Assembly: GCA_039028615.1 (NCBI GenBank)
Contig: JBCCHT010000071.1
Span: 1-36,517 of the forward strand
Reading direction: 5' to 3'
Length of the DNA: 36,517 bases
Origin: Myxococcota bacterium
GTDB taxonomy: Bacteria > Myxococcota_A > Polyangia > Nannocystales > Nannocystaceae
Part shown: positions 16,270 to 26,326 of the stretch, piece by piece
How the letters are laid out: every line of letters begins with the position of its first letter
Numbering within the stretch: position 1 is the stretch's first letter
Notes under the pieces: generated by a model
Told to the model about the DNA's origin: nothing
The model's input: the letters and a program-made list of their open reading frames with translations, nothing else
Database searches by the model: none
Translations under genes and position numbers: made by a program

Positions 16270-19200
16270 GTGGCCGAGCCGGGTACCCTGGGAGTCGCAA
16301 GGAACCGTGCCGCGGGGGTGAAGCAGTCAGGGGACAATTCCGAAGCGACGCGCTCGACGACCGTGGGGTCGAACCGAGCGGGCCGCGGACTCGGCCCCCC
16401 TTCGAATCGGAGCGACGTCGAGACCCGCCCCATCGGGGGCTCGGACTCCGACAACCCACTGCCGCCGGGGGCCCTCGGTCACGCGCAGGAACCGTGGCCG
16501 GGCATCGGTGGCAACTTGGGTCGGTACCTCGTCATCGACGAGTGCGGACGCGGGGGCATGGGCGTGGTGTTGCGGGCCTACGATCCCAAGCTACAGCGCG
16601 AGGTCGCACTCAAGATCCTGTGGGGCGACCGGGCCGACGACGACGCCCAGGCCCGGATCATCCGCGAGGCCCGGGCGCTCGCCCAACTCTCGCACCCGCA
16701 CGTGGTCTCCGTGTACGACGTGGACCTCGAGGAAACGCAGGGACGCACCGTGGTCGCCATGGAGTACGTACCCGGCACCACGCTGCGAAAGTGGCTCCAA
16801 GAAGAGCCGTCGACCGCGGAGATCATCGAGGCCTTCGTGCAAGCAGGGCGGGGCTTGGAGGCGGCGCACGAAGTGGGCCTGCTGCACCGTGATTTCAAGC
16901 CGAGCAACGTGCTGCGAACGGAGCAGGGGCGCCTGAAGGTCACCGACTTCGGGCTCGCCAAGTGGGTCGAAGGAGCGCCCTCGGTCTCGCGCTCGTCGGT
17001 GTCTTCGGCGGCCATGCCCATCGGCGATGACGACGAACCGTTGACCCGAGGCGACGTCGTGGTGGGTACGCCGCGCTACATGGCGCCCGAGCAGCTGATG
17101 GGAGAGCCGCAGACGCCGGCCGTGGACCAGTACGCGTTCTGCATCGCGCTTTGGGAGGCGCTGGCGGGGAGACCTCCGTTCCCGACCGGCAACCACCAGA
17201 CCATGCTCAGCGCCAAGGTCTACGGTCCGCCGCCGTGGCCCGACTCGACTCCGGCCCCGCCCGGGCTCGTCGATGCGCTGCTCCGCGGCTTGGCACCGAA
17301 GCCGGACGAGCGCTGGCCCTCGATGACGGCCCTGCTCGACGCCCTGGATTCCGATCCACAGGGAAAACCGGGGCGCTGGTGGATGGTCGCCGGAGCCACT
17401 GCGGTCACGGCCGCCGCCATCGCGTGGGGCATGGCCCAGTCCCCGCCGGACGAGCGCTGCACGGGCGCACGAGCGCGTATCGACGAAGCCTGGCCGGCAC
17501 CGCGCCGGGCACAGGTCGACGAGGCGTTCACCGCCACCGAGCTCCCCTATGCCGCCGACAGCTTGGAGCGCACGCTCGAGGCCCTCGACGACTACGCCGA
17601 CGCCTGGGCCGAGCAACACACGCGCGCATGCGAGGCCACTACGGTTCGTGGGGAGCAGTCTTCGGCGATCCTCGACCTTCGCATGGCATGCCTCGAGCAA
17701 CGGTGGCGAAGCCTCGATGCCACCACCCGCGAGCTCGCCTCTGCCGACCGCCTCGCCGTAGAGAACGTGGACGCGCTGCTCGACTCGCTGCCGCACCTGG
17801 ACCCCTGCTCGGACGTGGACAGCCTTCTGCGCGACGTCGTGCCGCCCGAGCCGGGGCAGGCCGACGAGATCGAGCGCATCGAGCGAGCACTGGCCCCCGC
17901 GCTGGCCCGCCATCGCTCGGGGCACTACGAAGAGGCCGTCGAGATCCTCGAGCCCCTCGAAGCGGCCGCAGCGAGGCTCGGCTACGGGCCTCTGCTCGCC
18001 CGGCTCCAGTACCACCTCGGTGACGCGCAGGTACGAGCCGGACGAGCGCAGCGTGGGCGTGAAATTCTGTCCGAGGGTCTCGCATCGGCCCTCGCGGCGC
18101 GACGCTGGGCTCAAGCCCGAGACACGGCCTTGCAGCTCACGCACGTGGTCGGGGGCGACCTCGCCAAGACCGACGAAGGCCGGGTCTACGCCGACGTGGT
18201 CCGGGGGTTGCTCGCCGCCGCGCCCGACCTCCGAAGCGAGGTGGAGCTGCGACGCACGCTCGCGATGATGGCTCGCACGGACGGCCGCCTCGAGGAGACG
18301 GAGCGCCTGCTACGCGACAACCTCGAGCAGCTGCAGGACGATGCCGGACCCTCGTTCGATGCGCGAGCCAGCCTGCTCTCCGATCTGGCCAACGTGCTGC
18401 AAGACCGTGGTGACTACGCCGGCGCCGAGCAGACCTATCGCGAGGCCCTCGCCCTCCAGCGGCAGCTCCGTGGCGACCAGCACCCGAGCGTCGCGCGGGC
18501 CCACGCCAACCTCGGACGCGCGCTCGAGCACCGCGGCCGCTACGAAGAATCCGAGCGCGAGATCCGTCGGGCGCTGTCCATCTCGGTGGCCATCCTCGGC
18601 GAGCGCCACACCGACCTCATCACGATCCGAACGAACCTCGGCAACGCGCTCTACGTGCAGAACGAGCTCGAAGAGGCCGAGGCCGAGCATCGCAAGTCCT
18701 TGTCGATCGCCCAGGAAAACTACGAGCCGACCCATCCCCGCGTCGCCTTCGCCCGCAACAACCTCGCGCTGGTGCTGATCCCGCTCGATCGCGCCGAAGA
18801 GGCCCGCCAGGAGCTGCGTACGGCCATCGATGCGTGGATGAGCACCAACGAGCCCGGCCACCCCTACGTGGCGGCGCTCCACTACAACCTGGGCCTGGCG
18901 TGGACCGAGGACGAGCACCACGCCGAAGCCGAGGCCGAGTATCGCATCGCGCTGGAGGTCGGCGAACGAGCCCTCGGAGCGGACCATCCCCGGCTGCTGA
19001 CCGTGCGGGCCGACCTCGCCGACGCCCTGCTGGCCCAGGAGCGAAACCTCGACGAAGCTCGGACCCTCGCGGAGTCAGCGTGGGCCACAGCGGAGACGAC
19101 CGAGCTGACCGACGAAGACCGGGGCAAGATCGCCTGGGTGGTCGCGCAGCTACGGGCGCGGGACACCACCGAGTTCAGCGAGGCGCTCGAGCTGGCCCGG

Positions 19201-19293
19201 ACCGCCCGCGACGCATTCGAGCGCGCCGGAGCTCCCTACGCATCGACGCGAGAGACCATCGACGCCTGGATGGCCGAACGCCAGCCGCAGTAA
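16270..19293 (+). CDS. Ser/Thr protein kinase with TM helix and C-terminal TPR repeats (start uncertain)
   Basis: GRGGMGVVL, VALKIL, HRDFKPSN, DFG, GTPRYMAPE; TM segment WWMVAGATAVTAAAIAWGMA; TPRs (HPSVARAHANLG, HPRVAFARNNLA). Confidence 0.93.
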   Translation: MAEPGTLGVARNRAAGVKQSGDNSEATRSTTVGSNRAGRGLGPPSNRSDVETRPIGGSDSDNPLPPGALGHAQEPWPGIGGNLGRYLVIDECGRGGMGVVLRAYDPKLQREVALKILWGDRADDDAQARIIREARALAQLSHPHVVSVYDVDLEETQGRTVVAMEYVPGTTLRKWLQEEPSTAEIIEAFVQAGRGLEAAHEVGLLHRDFKPSNVLRTEQGRLKVTDFGLAKWVEGAPSVSRSSVSSAAMPIGDDDEPLTRGDVVVGTPRYMAPEQLMGEPQTPAVDQYAFCIALWEALAGRPPFPTGNHQTMLSAKVYGPPPWPDSTPAPPGLVDALLRGLAPKPDERWPSMTALLDALDSDPQGKPGRWWMVAGATAVTAAAIAWGMAQSPPDERCTGARARIDEAWPAPRRAQVDEAFTATELPYAADSLERTLEALDDYADAWAEQHTRACEATTVRGEQSSAILDLRMACLEQRWRSLDATTRELASADRLAVENVDALLDSLPHLDPCSDVDSLLRDVVPPEPGQADEIERIERALAPALARHRSGHYEEAVEILEPLEAAAARLGYGPLLARLQYHLGDAQVRAGRAQRGREILSEGLASALAARRWAQARDTALQLTHVVGGDLAKTDEGRVYADVVRGLLAAAPDLRSEVELRRTLAMMARTDGRLEETERLLRDNLEQLQDDAGPSFDARASLLSDLANVLQDRGDYAGAEQTYREALALQRQLRGDQHPSVARAHANLGRALEHRGRYEESEREIRRALSISVAILGERHTDLITIRTNLGNALYVQNELEEAEAEHRKSLSIAQENYEPTHPRVAFARNNLALVLIPLDRAEEARQELRTAIDAWMSTNEPGHPYVAALHYNLGLAWTEDEHHAEAEAEYRIALEVGERALGADHPRLLTVRADLADALLAQERNLDEARTLAESAWATAETTELTDEDRGKIAWVVAQLRARDTTEFSEALELARTARDAFERAGAPYASTRETIDAWMAERQPQ

Positions 19294-19306: not shown

Positions 19307-20248
19307 TCAGGACGCGCGAGCCGAGACCGCGACGGGGGCTGGATCGGCGCTCGGTAGGCCGCGATGCAGCACGGCCGGCGGCAAGATCCCCCGGCTACGG
19401 AACGCCGCGAACACCCGTAGGTTCACGTCGGTCTGAAAGCTCTTCTCGTGCTTCGTATCGAGCACGTACGCCTTGAGCGTCAGCCGCATGGTCACGTAGC
19501 TGTCGTGGATCATCTGCCCCACGTGCACCACGATGGGCTTGGGCAGGTGCACGAAGCGGCTGGAGACCGCGGCTTCGGTGACGATCTCGCGGGCCTCGGC
19601 CAGGTCTTGGTCGACCCCGATGTCGAAGGTCATCGCCACCTGCATGTCGAGCGCCCCGTAGTTGCCGTTGGAGGTGATCTCGCTGAGGAACTTGTTGTTG
19701 GGAATGGTGACCGTGTTGTCGTCGAGGGTCTGCAAGCGGACCGAGCGCAGGCCGATGGAGGTGATGTCACCGTACTCGCCCCCGAAGGACACCCGGTCCC
19801 CCACCTGGAAGGGTCGATCGAGCATGATCATGATGCCCGCGATGAACGAGGCCACCAGGTCCTTGATGGCAAAACCGACCGACACGGCAATGGTGCCGCC
19901 GATGACCGCGAGCACGCGCTCGTCGATGCGGAAGCTGAGCATGATCACCGTCATGCCCGTGCCCACGTAGATGATGAACTGGGTGACGGTCGCGAGCTTC
20001 TGCAGCAGCAAGCGCCGCGTGGCGAACTGAGCGGAGATGCGGTCGACGAAGTCGTTCATCAGCCGCAGCACGATCCACGAGCTGAGGATGACGAACGCCG
20101 AGGTGAACACGCCGCCCCAGCGAATCATGCGGGCGAACTGCGAGACCGCGTCGGGCTCGATCATCTCCTCGACGGGCTCGGCCCCCAGCGCCAGTGTCGG
20201 TGCGAAGGCAGCCAGGGCCACGAGGACGGGTAGCAAAATGCGGAGCAT
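19307..20248 (-). CDS. Small-conductance mechanosensitive channel, MscS family
   Basis: TM helices followed by VGFAIKDLVASFIAGIMIMLDRPFQVGDRV...GDITSIGLRSVRLQTLDDNTVTIPN, the MscS core signature; GAGGA RBS. Confidence 0.93.
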   Translation of the reverse strand: MLRILLPVLVALAAFAPTLALGAEPVEEMIEPDAVSQFARMIRWGGVFTSAFVILSSWIVLRLMNDFVDRISAQFATRRLLLQKLATVTQFIIYVGTGMTVIMLSFRIDERVLAVIGGTIAVSVGFAIKDLVASFIAGIMIMLDRPFQVGDRVSFGGEYGDITSIGLRSVRLQTLDDNTVTIPNNKFLSEITSNGNYGALDMQVAMTFDIGVDQDLAEAREIVTEAAVSSRFVHLPKPIVVHVGQMIHDSYVTMRLTLKAYVLDTKHEKSFQTDVNLRVFAAFRSRGILPPAVLHRGLPSADPAPVAVSARAS

Positions 20249-20263
20249 GGTGTTCCTCGCGGG

Positions 20264-23200
20264 TCAGGCCGCCAACAGGTGCTGACGTTGGAGCATGCGG
20301 GTGATGGCGCGATACCAAGGCCAGGTGATGGAAAAGACGCCGTGCTCCTGCACGACATAGCCGCGCCCCAGGGCAAAGCGCAGGGCATCCTCGGCCTCGG
20401 CCAGCGGCATGCGGATCGCGGCCGAGACTTCGGGCTTGGTCGCCGTCTCGAGCTGTACCAGCGAGCGCAGCACAAACCGCAAGGTCAGCGGCAATGCATC
20501 GAGCTCGGCCGCGGGGGGCTCTCGGAACAGCCGCACCACCAGGCGCCCCGAGCGATCGCGAAACAGTGACTGCGCCCAGAAGAAGCTGGCCACGTGCGGG
20601 TTACCGGCCGCGTAGTCCCACAGGATGCGGTAGTAGCCGATCTCGCTGCGCCGCTCCTGCTCGAGCTCGTCGTCGTCGTACTGGCGAGGGATCACCAGGC
20701 CGTCGAAGGACGGCTCGACGTCGAGTCGCTCGCTGCGGCGCCGCATCAGCGCACAGATATCGTCCTCGTTCCACGGGCCCAGGGTGATCACGTCGTCGAA
20801 GTGCAACCGCTCGCCCCGCGCCCGGCTGACGTACTGCCACGCTGCCGCCCCGATGGTGGCGATCCACGAGACCTGCTCCCCCGACAGCCGGGCCAGCCGC
20901 CCCAGGTCGTCCAGGCCCCGCATGCCGCCGATGGTGGGCTGCACCAGGCGCTGGATGTCGTCGAGCGTGACCAGGCGAGGGCCTCCATCACGCAGGCCTC
21001 GACCGACCTCCTCGAGCGTCGCGGTGTCTTCGAGACCGAGGGCCCTGGCCAGGTCGGCGACGAGCCCCTTGACCCCCGACGCCGGGCAAGAGAGCGCCAG
21101 CGTGGGTCCCTCGTGCTGCTCGGCCACCCGGGCCAAGAGCGTGGACTTGCCCAGACCGCGCTCGCCCACCACCAACGAGAAGGTCGCGCCCGAGCGGCCG
21201 ACCGTGTCTCGAAGGCGGGTCATCGCACTACCCGCGACCTCGGGTAGCTGGTCGTCGCTGCGCACCGGCTCGATGAAGCGCGCCTGCAGCTCGGGCTCGG
21301 CCGGGCTCACCGACTCGGAGTGCTCGGTGGCTTCCGCCTGGCGAGCGACCTCGCGGCGAAACAGGTAGGCGAGCACCTTGCGGGTGCCTTCGAATCGCGC
21401 CGCCCGACGCACCAGCCATCGCCACGAGCCGCGAGCGAGCAGCACGATGCCGCCCACCATGGCCGCCGGATAGCTCGCCCAGCCCTCCGTACGCGCGCGC
21501 ACCCAGTCCGCCAGGCGCCCCTCGGGCTCCGCTTCGTAGGCCGCGAAGATCTCGTCCTTCCACCAGCGCGTCAGCAGCAGGGAGATGGGGATCGCGAGCA
21601 GCCAGCACGTGCCCAAGACCCAGGAGTAGATGGCACCGCGACCGACCAACGCATTGGCCAGCGACAGCACGAGCCCGGTGTACGCGATGGACAGGCCGAT
21701 CAGGCGCAGCGAACGAATGCGAACGTCCGCCGTCGCGCTGGGGCCCCCCTGCCGTCGGTGCTCGCGGGCCGCGATGGCATCGACGAACAGGATCGTGGCC
21801 GACCCGAGCAAGAGCCACTGCACCACCAGCCACAACAGCTCGAGCTCCGGGAACAGCTCGAAGGTCGAGGTGCCATGGAAGACGAACGCCGCGACCACCA
21901 GCCACTCCAGCGGCTTGCGAACACGGGCCAGGTACCAGGCGAACGACGCGATCCAGCCTGCGCGACGGGGCCGAGATCGACCAGGGGCCGGCTCGGGCGG
22001 ACGCTGAGCATCGGCCAGAATGTCGGGCGCACGCCTGCGCCACCACCGAAACACGAACACCAGCGCCAGCAGCTGCAGCAGGCCGATGATGAGCGGCACG
22101 GGTGAGGTCCGTAGATCGGTCCACACCGCCCGCAGCTGACGGGGCAACGACAGCCCGCGGTAGCGCAGCTCCAGGGCAATCTGAGAGGCCTCTTCGCTCA
22201 CTTGTCGTACGCCGGCCGGGCCGAAGCCCGTGACCTGGCTGCGCAGCGCGGGCGACAGGACTTTCAGCAGGCTCAACCGGGCGGCCTCGAGCCGAGTGAT
22301 GTCCTCGCGATATCCATCGGCCGCCGTCCACTGGAGCTGTTGCTCCCGCAGGCTCAGTTGCTCGCCTGCGGTCACGAGCTCCCGGTGGAGCTGGCGGATC
22401 TCGGTGGAATCGACCTCGTCGCCGAGCTCGAGCAACGCCCCCGGCTGCGGCACATCGCTATGGCCTTCGGCCACGTCGGCGAGCACTTGATCGAGGCCCT
22501 CGCGGGCGCTCGACAGCTGCTCTCGAAGCAGAGGATAGAGCGAGTCGGGATCTTCGGCCGGCTCGGCGAACGCCGCGATGGCACCGACCACATCCGCGCT
22601 GCGTTGCTCCCACCCGTCCACCGCCTCGTGGCGCTGCGACGACGCCAGCCGATGCTCCGCGAGCTCCAGTTCGAAGTGCGCCTGGGCTTCCTTCACGCCG
22701 AGCAATCGCGCGAGTTCTTCAGCGAGAGCGCGGCGAGCTTCAGTCTGTGCGGCCCGGGCTTCGGCGAGCGCACGCTCCTTTTCCCGGGCGACCGCCATCG
22801 CGGCCTCCTCTGCCTCGGCCACCGCCGCCTCGGGCTCGACCTCCTCGGCCTCCGCGGGTACATCCGCCTCGACCGGGTCCGCCTCGGGCTCGACCTCGGG
22901 CTCTCGCGCCGCCACCTGCCGGGCGCGATGGGCCTCCACCAGCGCACGGCGCTCCTCGGCCGGTCGCTCGAGCAACGATCGCTGAGCCTGATGCAACGCC
23001 AGCTCGGCCTGCTCCACCTCGGATGCGAGCGCATCGGCCTCGGTCGCCCCGGCCGTGCCGAGCCCCTCCGACAAGCTGATGCGCAGCACGGCGTCGGGCT
23101 CGACGTCGGTGTCGAGCGTCCCGGCCACCAGCGCTTCGAGCTGCGTGCGTCGGGTCCGAGCCTGCTCGAGGCGGGCCTTCAGCGCGGCGCGCCGCAGCTG

Positions 23201-23758
23201 CTCCGCGACCGATGCATCGCGATGCGCCCCGAGCCGCTCCGCCCGAAGCTCGGGCTCCAAGCGCAGCCAGTCGGCCAAGGTCGCGATGAACCGAGACCGT
23301 GCTTCGGCCTCGGTGGCCGAGTCGGGATCGGGCTGCGGCTTGGGTCTGCGTCGCGACGGCCGAGCGCGTTCCGTCGGCTCTTCCAGGGCCGTGCGGAGCG
23401 CGACGAGATCGGCGGCGCTCAACAGCGCGTCACCCGATAGTTCGATCGACAGCAGCGCGTCGACATCGACGCCGGGCTCGAGCTCGCCGCGGATCAACGC
23501 CCGGACCGATCGCCGGCGCTCGTCCAGCGTACGCAGGCGCTCGGCCGATGCCGATGCCGATGCCGATGCCGATGCCGATGGTGGCTCGGTAGGCTCTGCC
23601 TCCTCGGACTCGGCGCCCGCCGCCTCCACCGCCACCTCGGGCTCGGGCGCAGGCGATGCTGCCGGCTGAGCCAACACCGATGCGGGCCCCAGAAACAGCG
23701 CGAGCGACAGGCACGGCCCGATGCGGGCATCGATTCGAGCGTTCCATCCCAGCGCCAT
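20264..23758 (-). CDS. Large membrane protein: signal peptide, periplasmic coiled-coil, about 6 TM helices, cytoplasmic P-loop (AAA+/STAND-like) ATPase and probable winged helix
   Basis: Signal LSLALFLGPASVLA-Q; long helical region; hydrophobic segments; Walker A GERGLGKST; Walker B LVTLDD; C-terminal wHTH-like segment. ATG 23758 has a GGGGG RBS-like run. Confidence 0.82.
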   Translation of the reverse strand: MALGWNARIDARIGPCLSLALFLGPASVLAQPAASPAPEPEVAVEAAGAESEEAEPTEPPSASASASASASAERLRTLDERRRSVRALIRGELEPGVDVDALLSIELSGDALLSAADLVALRTALEEPTERARPSRRRPKPQPDPDSATEAEARSRFIATLADWLRLEPELRAERLGAHRDASVAEQLRRAALKARLEQARTRRTQLEALVAGTLDTDVEPDAVLRISLSEGLGTAGATEADALASEVEQAELALHQAQRSLLERPAEERRALVEAHRARQVAAREPEVEPEADPVEADVPAEAEEVEPEAAVAEAEEAAMAVAREKERALAEARAAQTEARRALAEELARLLGVKEAQAHFELELAEHRLASSQRHEAVDGWEQRSADVVGAIAAFAEPAEDPDSLYPLLREQLSSAREGLDQVLADVAEGHSDVPQPGALLELGDEVDSTEIRQLHRELVTAGEQLSLREQQLQWTAADGYREDITRLEAARLSLLKVLSPALRSQVTGFGPAGVRQVSEEASQIALELRYRGLSLPRQLRAVWTDLRTSPVPLIIGLLQLLALVFVFRWWRRRAPDILADAQRPPEPAPGRSRPRRAGWIASFAWYLARVRKPLEWLVVAAFVFHGTSTFELFPELELLWLVVQWLLLGSATILFVDAIAAREHRRQGGPSATADVRIRSLRLIGLSIAYTGLVLSLANALVGRGAIYSWVLGTCWLLAIPISLLLTRWWKDEIFAAYEAEPEGRLADWVRARTEGWASYPAAMVGGIVLLARGSWRWLVRRAARFEGTRKVLAYLFRREVARQAEATEHSESVSPAEPELQARFIEPVRSDDQLPEVAGSAMTRLRDTVGRSGATFSLVVGERGLGKSTLLARVAEQHEGPTLALSCPASGVKGLVADLARALGLEDTATLEEVGRGLRDGGPRLVTLDDIQRLVQPTIGGMRGLDDLGRLARLSGEQVSWIATIGAAAWQYVSRARGERLHFDDVITLGPWNEDDICALMRRRSERLDVEPSFDGLVIPRQYDDDELEQERRSEIGYYRILWDYAAGNPHVASFFWAQSLFRDRSGRLVVRLFREPPAAELDALPLTLRFVLRSLVQLETATKPEVSAAIRMPLAEAEDALRFALGRGYVVQEHGVFSITWPWYRAITRMLQRQHLLAA
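23544..23579 (+). repeat. Perfect hexanucleotide repeat (GCCGAT)x6 encoding (SA)6 in the ATPase N-terminal linker
   Basis: Read directly. Confidence 0.9.
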
Positions 23759-23971
23759 CGACCCCCACCGCTGCAGAATTCGGACCGGGCTGCAAAGGGC
23801 CGAAACGACGCGCGGAGACATCCTTTCCGACCAATGCGCGGCACTTTCCCACGGTGTTCCATTGTGCCCCGCCCCAGCGTGAACAGGCGCTACGGCCGGA
23901 ACTCGACATTGGGACACCCACCGACGACGCGCGGCTCGCCGGTCTCCGATCCGCCGAGGGAGCGCGGTCGA

Positions 23972-25300
23972 TCAACGCAGGGGTGCACGCACGACGAGCT
24001 TCTCGTCCCGCAGGGCCACCGGCTCCTCGCGTCGCGACGCGCGATAGCCCCGGCGGAGGTTGTGGCTGAACAGCGGCAAGATCGGCGCCAGCGCGACTCG
24101 GCTGACCGCGGTGAGGAACTTGCCCGCCAGCTGCGGCGAGCCGACACCGAACAGCGGCGTCGGGCTGTACTCGAGCGCATGACGCTCGACGTGGGCGGCC
24201 GCCCCCTCGCCGTAGAGGTCGCGAATCACCATCAGCGCCGCTTCGTAGGAGCCGATCGCGGGCCCCGCCGAGTAGTACTTGTCGGACGAAGCGAGCTCGC
24301 GGTTCGCCGGGGTCGCCCCGCAGCGCTCGAGCATGTGCGTCATGTGGAAATTGCTGGTCGCGACGTGGCCATCGAGCAGCCCCGCGGCGCCCACGATCAG
24401 ACTCCCAGCACAGACGCAGATCACCGCCTTGGCGGCCGAGGCCTGGCGCTGCATGAAGCTCAGCACGTCGGGGTCCGAGCACAACGCGGGCATGTTGGCG
24501 CCCAAGATGATGACGTCGGCCTGCGGACACTCTTCGAGGGTCGTATCGGGGACCACCGTCGGACCCAAGGTGCAGCGCACCGGCTTCGTCTTCTTCCACA
24601 CGTAGCGAAAGCGAAGGTTCGGCAGCGCCCCCAGGGTATCGGCCGCGCCGATCACATCCGGCAAGTACGTCCCCGGGGCGGTGAGCACCGCGACCTCCAG
24701 CCCACGCTCGTCGGGCGTGCTCGGCTCGACGCCTTCGAAGTGGCGCTCGGGGTTGTACTCCAAGGTCAGCTCCGCGAGCTTGGTGACGAAGTCTCCGGTC
24801 AGCGCCTTCATCACCGCGAACGCGGCTTCGATCCCGCCCGTGGACGGGCCCGCGGTGAAGAAACGTTCGTCACGGACGAAGGTCGGAGACTCGACCGCGG
24901 TGACACGGTGTGCCTGGAGGCGGCGCAGCGTGTCGACGTCGGCCGTCACCCGCTTGCCTTCGAGTACCCCCGCGTTCGCCAACAGCTGCACCCCGTTCGA
25001 GATGCCGATCACGAACGAAGCCTGCGCGGCCGCCCGCTTCACGAACGCGAGGGTGGCTGCGTCGTCGAGCGTCTCGGGCGATTGCTCGCCGACCACGAAC
25101 ACCGCGAGCTTGGGGCAGTCCGCGAAGGTCGCGTGCGGCACCAGCTCGAGCCCCAAGCGGCCCCGCACACGCGCCGAGGACTCGGCGACGTAGAGGGTGC
25201 GATGCGTCAGCGCATTCGCCCCCAACACCGCCTCGACGCCGACCAAGTCGGAGAGGCGACATCCGGGCGTGGCGAGCAGGCCGATTTTCTTCACCAACAT
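23972..25300 (-). CDS. Tandem-domain DJ-1/PfpI family protein, isocyanide-hydratase-like
   Basis: Two DJ-1 domains (ELVPHATFADCP and TVVPDTTLEECPQADV); ICVCAGS in domain 2; LEYNP and LEYSPTPLFGVGSP motifs resembling the isocyanide hydratase C-terminus. Confidence 0.85.
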   Translation of the reverse strand: MLVKKIGLLATPGCRLSDLVGVEAVLGANALTHRTLYVAESSARVRGRLGLELVPHATFADCPKLAVFVVGEQSPETLDDAATLAFVKRAAAQASFVIGISNGVQLLANAGVLEGKRVTADVDTLRRLQAHRVTAVESPTFVRDERFFTAGPSTGGIEAAFAVMKALTGDFVTKLAELTLEYNPERHFEGVEPSTPDERGLEVAVLTAPGTYLPDVIGAADTLGALPNLRFRYVWKKTKPVRCTLGPTVVPDTTLEECPQADVIILGANMPALCSDPDVLSFMQRQASAAKAVICVCAGSLIVGAAGLLDGHVATSNFHMTHMLERCGATPANRELASSDKYYSAGPAIGSYEAALMVIRDLYGEGAAAHVERHALEYSPTPLFGVGSPQLAGKFLTAVSRVALAPILPLFSHNLRRGYRASRREEPVALRDEKLVVRAPLR

Positions 25301-25411
25301 GGGGACTGCAGGTTCGCGAATTTCCCCGCGCAACGGCAGGGGGTGAGACCGCATGACGCAGTTTTTTTGAGCACGGAATAGGCCGGCCGCCGAGTGCGCT
25401 CGGGTCCCCCC

Positions 25412-26326
25412 TTACTCGTTCAGGCAAAACCCACTGAAGCCGTTGCTCAGGCAAAACCCGTTGCAGCAATCGGAAGCGACCGTGCAGGGTTCCCCTCCCC
25501 GCACGCAGCAATCGGTCGTATCGAAGTTCAGGCAGCCGGCATTGCAGGTGACGGTGCCGCCGCCGAACCCCAGCGTCACGCAGTTCACCCCGTCGAGCTC
25601 GGAGCCGTCGCAGACCTCGGACCCTTCGATGGTCCCGTTCCCGCAGCGTTGAATCGCGCACCCCGACGTGTCGATCTCGCAGCCGATGCAGCCCAGCGTG
25701 CCGCCGTCGAAGCCCTGACTCAGGCAGGTCTCGCCGCCGAAGTCGATCCCGTCGCACTGCTCCTCGCCCTCGCGGACCGCGTTGCCGCAGCGGGTGCACG
25801 ACGACGTGTCGAAGGTGCAGTCTTCGGCGCACGCCAGAGAGCCCGCGTCGAAGTCCGGCCGGTCCATGCAGGTCTCGCCGCCGAGGTCGGAGCCATCGCA
25901 GTCCTCCGCTCCTTCCCGCCGCCCGTCGCCGCAGAAGCTGCAGCCGCTCACGTCGATCTCGCAGGCATCGGTGCACGCAAGCATCCCGGACGCCGAAGCG
26001 TCCACGGGAGCAAAGTCGTCGCAGCTCAGGCCGCCGAAGTCACCCGACTCACACTGCTCGCCCGCACCGAGGATCCCGTCGCCGCACACGCTTTCCGCCG
26101 AGCCGTGCGTACCGTCTCCCGGCTCGCCCGTCTCCGTGGACGCTGAAGCACGAGTGTCCTCGCCGCCCGAGGTCGACCCCGACGCCCCAACGCCCGTCGA
26201 GGTCTCGCCGCGTCCCGACGCCCCGACGGGGGCCGAGTCGGGACAGCCCGACAGCGCGAGCAAGAACGCACAAGCGACCCTCCGCGGAACAGGAACGACG
26301 AACATCGGCAGCGCGGAGGAGACCAC
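25412..26326 (-). CDS. Cys-rich repeat lipoprotein (myxobacterial CGNG/CGDG repeats)
   Basis: Lipobox LALSGC; S/T/G linker; four repeats of CG(D/N)x...E.C(D/E)..D.GG..C...G.L.C...C..D.S.C; C-terminal CC knot. Confidence 0.85.
   Translation of the reverse strand: MVSSALPMFVVPVPRRVACAFLLALSGCPDSAPVGASGRGETSTGVGASGSTSGGEDTRASASTETGEPGDGTHGSAESVCGDGILGAGEQCESGDFGGLSCDDFAPVDASASGMLACTDACEIDVSGCSFCGDGRREGAEDCDGSDLGGETCMDRPDFDAGSLACAEDCTFDTSSCTRCGNAVREGEEQCDGIDFGGETCLSQGFDGGTLGCIGCEIDTSGCAIQRCGNGTIEGSEVCDGSELDGVNCVTLGFGGGTVTCNAGCLNFDTTDCCVRGGEPCTVASDCCNGFCLSNGFSGFCLNE

Follow-up and report, generated by a model that had tools for sequence, protein, structure and literature searches.

Why should the gene for a mechanosensitive channel of the MscS family lie directly behind that of a large membrane-anchored ATPase? 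The question is raised by a 36,517-nucleotide (nt) stretch of DNA from a bacterium of the Nannocystaceae in the Myxococcota (contig JBCCHT010000071.1 of assembly GCA_039028615.1), here called the window, in which two open reading frames of 1164 and 313 amino acids (aa), P0001 and P0002, follow one another on the reverse strand. A first-pass annotation of this DNA had described a two-gene operon whose large protein ends 15 nt before a compact MscS gene with its own ribosome-binding site, and both details hold: 15 nt separate the P0001 stop from the P0002 start, and GAGGA stands 5 nt before the ATG. Neither a sigma-70 promoter nor a terminator 3' of the pair was found at the locus. We report that an MscS channel together with a dedicated AAA+ membrane protein is a real and widespread two-gene unit, new as a system, and we predict that its two products are physically coupled. 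Literature searches for an MscS-ATPase pairing returned no title or abstract opening that describes one; neighbourhood tables in supplements could mention the pair.

The annotation had staked its reading on the two genes staying together across genomes, and they clearly do. Among the best 80 of 241 loci found in GTDB genomes, MscS was directly downstream of the ATPase gene in 79, with intergenic gaps of -14 to +39 nt, and the single miss was a contig ending 35 nt after the stop codon. Metagenome loci gave the same picture (77 of 78, the miss being a contig that ends 108 nt after the stop), as did 40 of 40 genome regions chosen from the close and middle score tiers, a few contigs of which repeat from the earlier homologue set. 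Three hits fell in annotated alphaproteobacterial plasmid regions, and both of the two examined had MscS downstream.

In a reverse test, both profiles were searched in the same 301 genomes. All 111 partner-type MscS matches at E 1e-35 were used, together with 111 ATPase matches taken from the 150 listed out of 200: 109 at E below 1e-26 and two weaker ones chosen for adjoining an MscS. The partner-type MscS lay directly behind an ATPase match in 102 of the 111 cases, or 100 without the two hand-picked weak matches, and 98 of the 104 ATPase matches at E 1e-30 had such an MscS directly behind them. Of the other nine MscS, three were tandem second copies and two were parted from the ATPase gene by a PhoX gene; one was split at contig ends, one followed a divergent ATPase, one stood on a different contig from its ATPase, and one (G042) had no ATPase. 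The pairing of ATPase and MscS is near-obligate in both directions.

The two proteins have also diverged together. Distances in the ATPase and MscS trees correlated with r 0.79 over 132 pairs, to which shared descent contributes, compared with a maximum of 0.15 in 200 permutations (four short rows dropped). In a quick MscS tree, for which a quarter of the loci L001-L080 was sampled, the partner MscS of the close and middle tiers formed one branch (SH-aLRT, Shimodaira-Hasegawa-like approximate likelihood ratio test, 97), with the six other MscS of the window's genome outside it. That genome holds at least eight MscS paralogues, as well as a second pair of the same type (L150, G000:C18:45081-48424) whose proteins are 39% and 69% identical to P0001 and P0002. 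No third gene is shared by the loci: even the most frequent cluster of neighbours, represented by a further MscS-family gene, occurs at 28 of 200.

Several variations on the arrangement were seen. Two MscS genes stand in tandem behind the ATPase at L086, L153, G256:C117 and G206:C8, where mixed heptamers are possible, and the PhoX-family gene between ATPase and MscS occurs in two genomes (L141:3173-5512 and L142:6893-8992). In up to 37 of 200 loci (L001-L120 and L153-L232) another match to the MscS family, a distant one, is found within a few kilobases, and some of these matches, at contig ends, are fragments of the partner gene itself; a neighbour cluster containing CorA covers 22 of 200.

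The partner protein is recognizably a member of the MscS family. P0002 matched Pfam MS_channel_2nd (E 3.5e-19) and MS_channel_3rd (E 9e-5), both above cut-off, and aligned over its full length to solved MscS structures with profile matches of E 7e-19 to 5e-15. It has the MscS-family architecture of a paddle formed by the transmembrane (TM) helices TM1 and TM2, a TM3 pore helix, and a cage of beta and alpha-beta domains. No NCBIfam cut-off was reached by P0002, whose scores include 51.7 bits where 500 are required and, for MscK, 61.6 where 991 are. Its V122 and F126 align with V921 and F925 of MscK and with L105 and L109 of E. coli MscS, which PMC9653487 gives as gate residues. Across the 111 partner MscS, the pore and gate columns were strongly kept (G125 in 111, F126 in 105, V122 in 83, G118 in 106), so that TM3a shows the hydrophobic gate and pattern of small residues typical of MscS, and an aspartate at the TM3 kink, D130, was invariant. 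Conservation was higher in the cage (0.82 for the beta and 0.68 for the alpha-beta domain) than in TM1 (0.50) or TM2 (0.47). By these sequence features P0002 resembles a working pore whose gate looks intact. Partner MscS of the Vibrionaceae type (L155-L178) are 290-299 aa long. PMC3691451 gives MscS homologues of 569 aa and 291 aa, the latter the distant, 21%-identical Vibrio cholerae protein NP_232581, which by size alone fits the Vibrionaceae-type partners. VC1751, deleted as 'mscS' in PMC11167432, was weighed as a possible member that has already been studied, and we claim no phenotype on its account.

For P0001, a Pfam scan identified AAA_22 alone (residues 856-955, E 1.2e-10), and no NCBIfam family matched. 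The structural model (60 sequences; predicted local distance difference test, pLDDT, 87.7) is all-helical over residues 65-811 and forms an AAA+ core, lid and winged helix over 820-1164, in keeping with the helical region and winged-helix-like tail described earlier; the Walker A (GERGLGKST) and Walker B (LVTLDD) motifs can both be read intact. The proposed signal peptide was likewise supported, a signal-like hydrophobic 12-mer being present in the first 50 residues of 80 of 99 full-length homologues compared with 1 of 98 per internal control window (three windows). An alternative in-frame ATG lies at 23818; signal peptide and codon pattern both favour the start at 23758. The outer half of the periplasmic domain is variable and is absent from the Vibrionaceae forms of about 784 aa. 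A hexamer repeat at window positions ~23545-23580 gives rise to a Ser-Ala run within the disordered linker near the N-terminus.

The estimate of about six TM helices required correction, as five span the membrane (553-730). Loops 1, 3 and 5 are rich in lysine and arginine, as is the stretch that follows the sixth hydrophobic helix (761-777), and loops 2 and 4 have few. Because the loops on both sides of helix 761-777 are basic (means of 6.1 and 7.6 lysines or arginines over 111 rows, compared with 0.5 and 0.7 in the two outer loops), this helix is probably re-entrant or interfacial, which would leave the ATPase in the cytoplasm. The likely topology of P0001 runs from a periplasmic domain through five TM helices and the sixth helix, re-entrant or interfacial, to an ATPase in the cytoplasm.

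Which part of P0001 belongs with the channel is indicated by its wider family. Searched against 1.84 billion representatives, the ATPase profile matched 3,608 clusters at E 0.001 and 1,178 at E 1e-30. Where a homologue has a named organism, this is usually one of the Myxococcota; Aliivibrio, Vibrio casei, Caulobacter and Novosphingobium are also represented. MscS was directly downstream in 17 of 20 regions that encode distant relatives. Among 18 such relatives scanned, nine contained Pfam Na_H_Exchanger, one AA_permease and one SLC12, and TrkH lay upstream of the ATPase in 7 of the 20 regions. An operon of this distant type, with TrkH, an antiporter-ATPase fusion and MscS, is present in the window's own genome (L140, G000:C12 ~50750-57300). 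Relatives with no predicted TM segment (L125, L131, L147, L151) also directly precede MscS. The helical stalk of the transporter-fused relatives gave no match to the periplasmic and TM part of P0001 (hhalign 0.1-0.4%). The conserved unit is the ATPase-winged-helix domain with MscS, and the membrane module varies; because the domain also precedes MscS when it is fused to a transporter or lacks TM segments, it is this domain, and not the MscK-like part, that partners the channel. Stand-alone ATPase forms were sought in the range 174-587 aa, which yielded seven proteins, mostly on short contigs, one being a fragment of a 1336-aa protein, and ATPase look-alikes of 343-398 aa turned up in the Atlas search.

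The varying membrane module of P0001 had been read as one half of a split MscK-like architecture, and this can be retained as a suggestion for TM1-5 and not for the periplasmic domain. The model of residues 305-815 (pLDDT 94.5) placed MscK structures at Foldseek ranks 1 and 2 (E 0.042 and 0.067, probabilities 0.82 and 0.93, next row 0.11), and no match reached E 0.001. A wide fold search with the same segment returned generic helical matches alone (best Z 8.9); MscK was not in the 50 rows listed, and AtMSL1 (Z 8.2) and Flycatcher1 (Z 7.6) fell within noise. Structural realignment was colinear but weak, pairing P0001 348-729 with MscK 286-682 (Z 6.3, root-mean-square deviation (rmsd) 12.9, 284 aligned, rank 27). 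Profile-profile alignment by hhalign with MscK-family alignments gave 26%, 56% and 94.5%, and 9% and 70% after the query was subsampled, with the same nearly gapless register in every run, P0001 TM1-5 (~560-727) on MscK TM1-5 (~504-675). Reversed templates gave 0.3-8% and other membrane profiles at most 0.7%; no block shuffle reached the MscK score in either set-up (0 of 40), by a narrow margin for the TM-only set-up (27.4 versus 26.0). Single-sequence hhalign gave 0.6% against E. coli MscK and 0.4% against MscM, and the periplasmic domains of P0001 and MscK did not align significantly (1.6%, reversed control 0.3%). Pfam MscS_TM and MscS_porin were found in none of 80 members of the P0001 family at E 0.1. 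Because there are two genes, five peripheral helices and neither of these domains in 80 members, the pair is, as judged from its sequences, not MscK by membership; for common ancestry of the two TM bundles the odds are about even.

We favour, at what we judge an even chance, the reading that P0001 is a dedicated accessory subunit that docks on the cage of its own MscS channel. The AAA+/winged-helix domain would bind the heptamer's cytoplasmic cage and serve there as a switch or scaffold that binds nucleotide, rather than as a motor. Its effect would be to move the tension threshold of MscS or to control the cage portals, comparable to what the TM7 extension does in MscM, where it belongs to the same polypeptide. 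Input, perhaps envelope stress, tension or a ligand in the periplasm, would come through the periplasmic domain and the bundle of five helices, whose placement resembles that of MscK's peripheral module. Relatives fused to transporters would use this docking unit to link their ion transporter to the channel, and ion and turgor control is the likely role of the pair. The linkage and co-divergence of the two genes, the domain folds, the kept gate residues and the loss of the catalytic lysine in one branch are observed; contact between the proteins, the direction of control, the kind of signal and the role in ion and turgor balance are predictions. Control at the level of the cage has precedents in PMC13591265, where the MscM TM7 extension moves the alpha-beta subdomain and opens portals, and in the bCNG channels described there.

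Several observations weigh against this reading. Gene linkage indicates shared function, not contact, and MscS and MscL activate without accessory proteins (PMC13591265). A cage more strongly conserved than the paddle may be a common trait among MscS proteins. The MscK resemblance is below significance, and profile-to-sequence searches were not significant, their best hits being off register. Of the 111 partner-type MscS, that of G042 has no ATPase match upstream; G297 carries the two genes on separate contigs, and three of the 20 distant relatives (L128, L129, L133) have no MscS directly downstream. We found no experiment on any family member. The intact Walker A and B motifs with an invariant R981 in the 89 close loci would also fit an active ATPase. 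A complex prediction of P0001 545-1164 with P0002 36-300, ATP and Mg (score 0.19, mark 0.32) counts neither way.

Other explanations were weighed against the properties of the ATPase domain. Its AAA+ core with helical lid and C-terminal winged helix are arranged as in Cdc6/ORC1-like AAA+ proteins, and fold matches included Cdc6/ORC1, TnsC, MuB and the archaeal ATPases PAB2304 and SSO1545 at Z 12.7-16.1 (for example 7jgr_G, Z 16.1, rmsd 3.6, 239 aligned); the closest, Cdc6/ORC1, TnsC and MuB (Z 14.4-16.1), were tied within ~1-2 with no single winner. These three are DNA-binding ATPases, the P0001 tail resembles MarR-type winged helices (Z ~12), and conservation of the winged helix matches that of the ATPase core (0.51 versus 0.46). 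P0001 might accordingly be a membrane-anchored signal transducer of the CadC-LysP kind, its winged helix binding DNA or another cytoplasmic target while MscS acts as a co-sensor or in the same pathway, ungated. We consider this unlikely: the presumed recognition helix has one conserved arginine, R1127, the loci have no third gene in common, and the end of an antiporter or SLC12 fusion is an odd place for a transcription factor.

The MscS-like heptamer could instead be an assembly scaffold that templates or localises the large protein (in relatives, the ion transporters) and conducts little or nothing. This would fit the decay of the ATPase in several lineages in which the pairing persists, the long branches of the distant partner MscS in the quick tree, and two single-genome, in-frame joins (L149:1753-4254 (-) and L152:412-1845 (-)) of shortened ATPase parts to the MscS cage part alone, without pore helices. 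Both joins come from fragmented assemblies, in which real fusion, decay or mis-assembly are all possible. The strongly kept pore and gate columns of the close family speak against such a scaffold, which we hold to be less likely again.

Still less likely is an ATP-driven machine, in which an oligomeric AAA+ motor pulls the channel open, resets its inactivation or drives export of a solute or polymer. The 89 close loci retain what it would need: in motif counts that skipped rows with gaps in the motif, the Walker A lysine was kept in 88, the Walker B DD in 79 and R981 in all 89. R981 ends the helix after strand 963-970, a position from which an arginine-finger role is suggested, and is kept in 13 of 30 middle-tier loci. 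The Walker A lysine, however, is replaced by arginine in 5 of those 30 (kept in 25) and is absent from all 20 Vibrionaceae-type metagenome loci, which have T, A or S in its place and DN at Walker B and still keep MscS. This loss favours a nucleotide switch or scaffold over a motor and tempers the earlier suggestion of an ATP-gated channel. The sensor-2 arginine of AAA+ proteins sits in the lid; P0001 lacks it (GNPH), the close loci mostly have GNPA or GNPG with no arginine after GNP in the five commonest forms, and GNPR occurs in 12 of the 30 middle-tier loci. The exporter proposed in the first-pass annotation found no support. The common neighbours include no substrate, synthase or outer-membrane gene.

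The marks of a STAND protein are a GxP motif in its helical domain, an arginine that closes strand 4 and sensor repeats at the C-terminus. An anti-phage or conflict system, in which a STAND-like sensor opens the channel and kills the infected cell, is very improbable: the GxP motif is present (G1052 in 120 of 120, P1054 in 117 of 120), NLR and Avs structures are among the fold matches (Z 12-13.6) and Pfam nSTAND_NTPase5 matched 7 of 49 members weakly (best E 9e-6), but strand 963-970 ends without an arginine, the chain stops at the winged helix with no sensor repeats, P0001, P0002 and P0102 matched no PADLOC family at E 0.01, the recurrent neighbours are MscS-family genes and CorA (for distant relatives TrkH and antiporters), and the G+C content of the locus (0.694) equals that of the window (0.686).

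Table 1. Positions of the ATPase-MscS pair and its parts in the window.
Feature	Position	Strand	Basis or remark
Gene, 1164-aa membrane-anchored AAA+/winged-helix protein (P0001)	20264..23758	(-)	Open reading frame, Pfam and model
Signal-peptide-like N-terminus, ~aa 1-29	23672..23758	(-)	Hydrophobic segment in homologues; cleavage presumed
Periplasmic all-helical domain, aa 65-551	22106..23566	(-)	Location probable, given the signal peptide and the positive-inside rule pattern
Transmembrane bundle of five helices, aa 553-730, perhaps distantly related to MscK TM1-5	21569..22102	(-)	
Cytoplasmic juxtamembrane helices and putative re-entrant/interfacial hydrophobic helix, aa 731-811	21326..21568	(-)	Conserved LAYLFRR motif
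AAA+ core and lid, aa 820-1081	20516..21301	(-)	Cdc6/ORC1-, TnsC- and MuB-like
Candidate arginine finger R981; GNP motif, aa 1052-1054	Within AAA+ core/lid of P0001		
Walker A GERGLGKST, aa 865-873	21140..21166	(-)	
Walker B LVTLDD, aa 929-934	20957..20974	(-)	
C-terminal winged helix, aa 1082-1164	20267..20515	(-)	Conserved LxRxHLL motif at end
Shine-Dalgarno-like GAGGA in the 15-nt gap	20254..20258	(-)	5 nt 5' of MscS ATG
Gene, 313-aa partner MscS (P0002)	19307..20248	(-)	Hydrophobic N-terminal segment, then three TM helices and the beta and alpha-beta domains of the cage
Pore gate V122...F126 of P0002	19871..19885	(-)	Aligned with MscK V921/F925

A Ser/Thr kinase-TPR gene (window 16270-19293 (+)) is convergent to the MscS gene, with 13 nt between the stop codons. 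A tandem DJ-1/PfpI gene (window 23972-25354 (-)) lies 213 nt upstream on the same strand and is not among the annotated recurrent neighbours, and beyond it a cysteine-rich repeat protein with a lipoprotein-like N-terminus (window 25412-26326 (-)) had no Pfam or NCBIfam match.

A wider form of the docking-subunit reading, which we judge somewhat less likely than not, is that these loci encode a widespread, undescribed type of heteromeric mechanosensitive channel. Cage-borne AAA+/winged-helix subunits would gate an MscS heptamer by their nucleotide state, and the docking unit would have been grafted onto an MscK-like periplasmic and TM sensor (at the present locus), Na+/H+ antiporters and SLC12-type cotransporters, wiring each of these to a turgor valve. 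For gating that is set purely by lipid tension and needs no accessory protein, bacterial mechanosensitive channels are the model case (PMC13591265). If the docking reading is true, control of gating by a protein and a nucleotide would be added to that tension-only picture, with a partner kept across Myxococcota, Vibrionaceae and Alphaproteobacteria. The pair also bears on why bacteria retain many MscS paralogues, and offers a lead on how prokaryotic SLC12-type and antiporter fusions connect to turgor.

Among known systems, KefC-KefF and the animal K-ATP channel (Kir6-SUR) share with the pair the logic alone of an ion pathway controlled by a nucleotide-binding partner, and both use unrelated folds (KTN/RCK and ABC) and unrelated pores. 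Like P0001, Cdc6/ORC1, TnsC, MuB, PAB2304 and SSO1545 combine an AAA+ core, lid and winged helix; they are soluble, DNA-handling proteins, whereas P0001 is membrane-anchored, 10-19% identical to them and channel-linked, and its close family is without the sensor-2 arginine. The bCNG channels also join an MscS-like channel to a nucleotide-binding module (PMC13591265), but there a cyclic-nucleotide domain is fused to the channel and here a separate gene supplies an AAA+ domain. MscS of E. coli and T. tengcongensis has the same three-TM core and beta and alpha-beta cage as P0002, which differs in its invariant D130 at the TM3 kink, its own branch in the tree and its fixed ATPase neighbour. Nearest in layout are MscK (KefA) and MscM (YjeP) of E. 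coli, in which a periplasmic helical domain likewise precedes a peripheral TM bundle that flanks an MscS core, with the same V/F gate in MscK as in P0002. In those proteins everything is carried by a single chain with 11 TM helices and no NTPase, whereas here pore and periphery are two genes, and the peripheral bundle has five TM helices followed by an AAA+/winged-helix domain.

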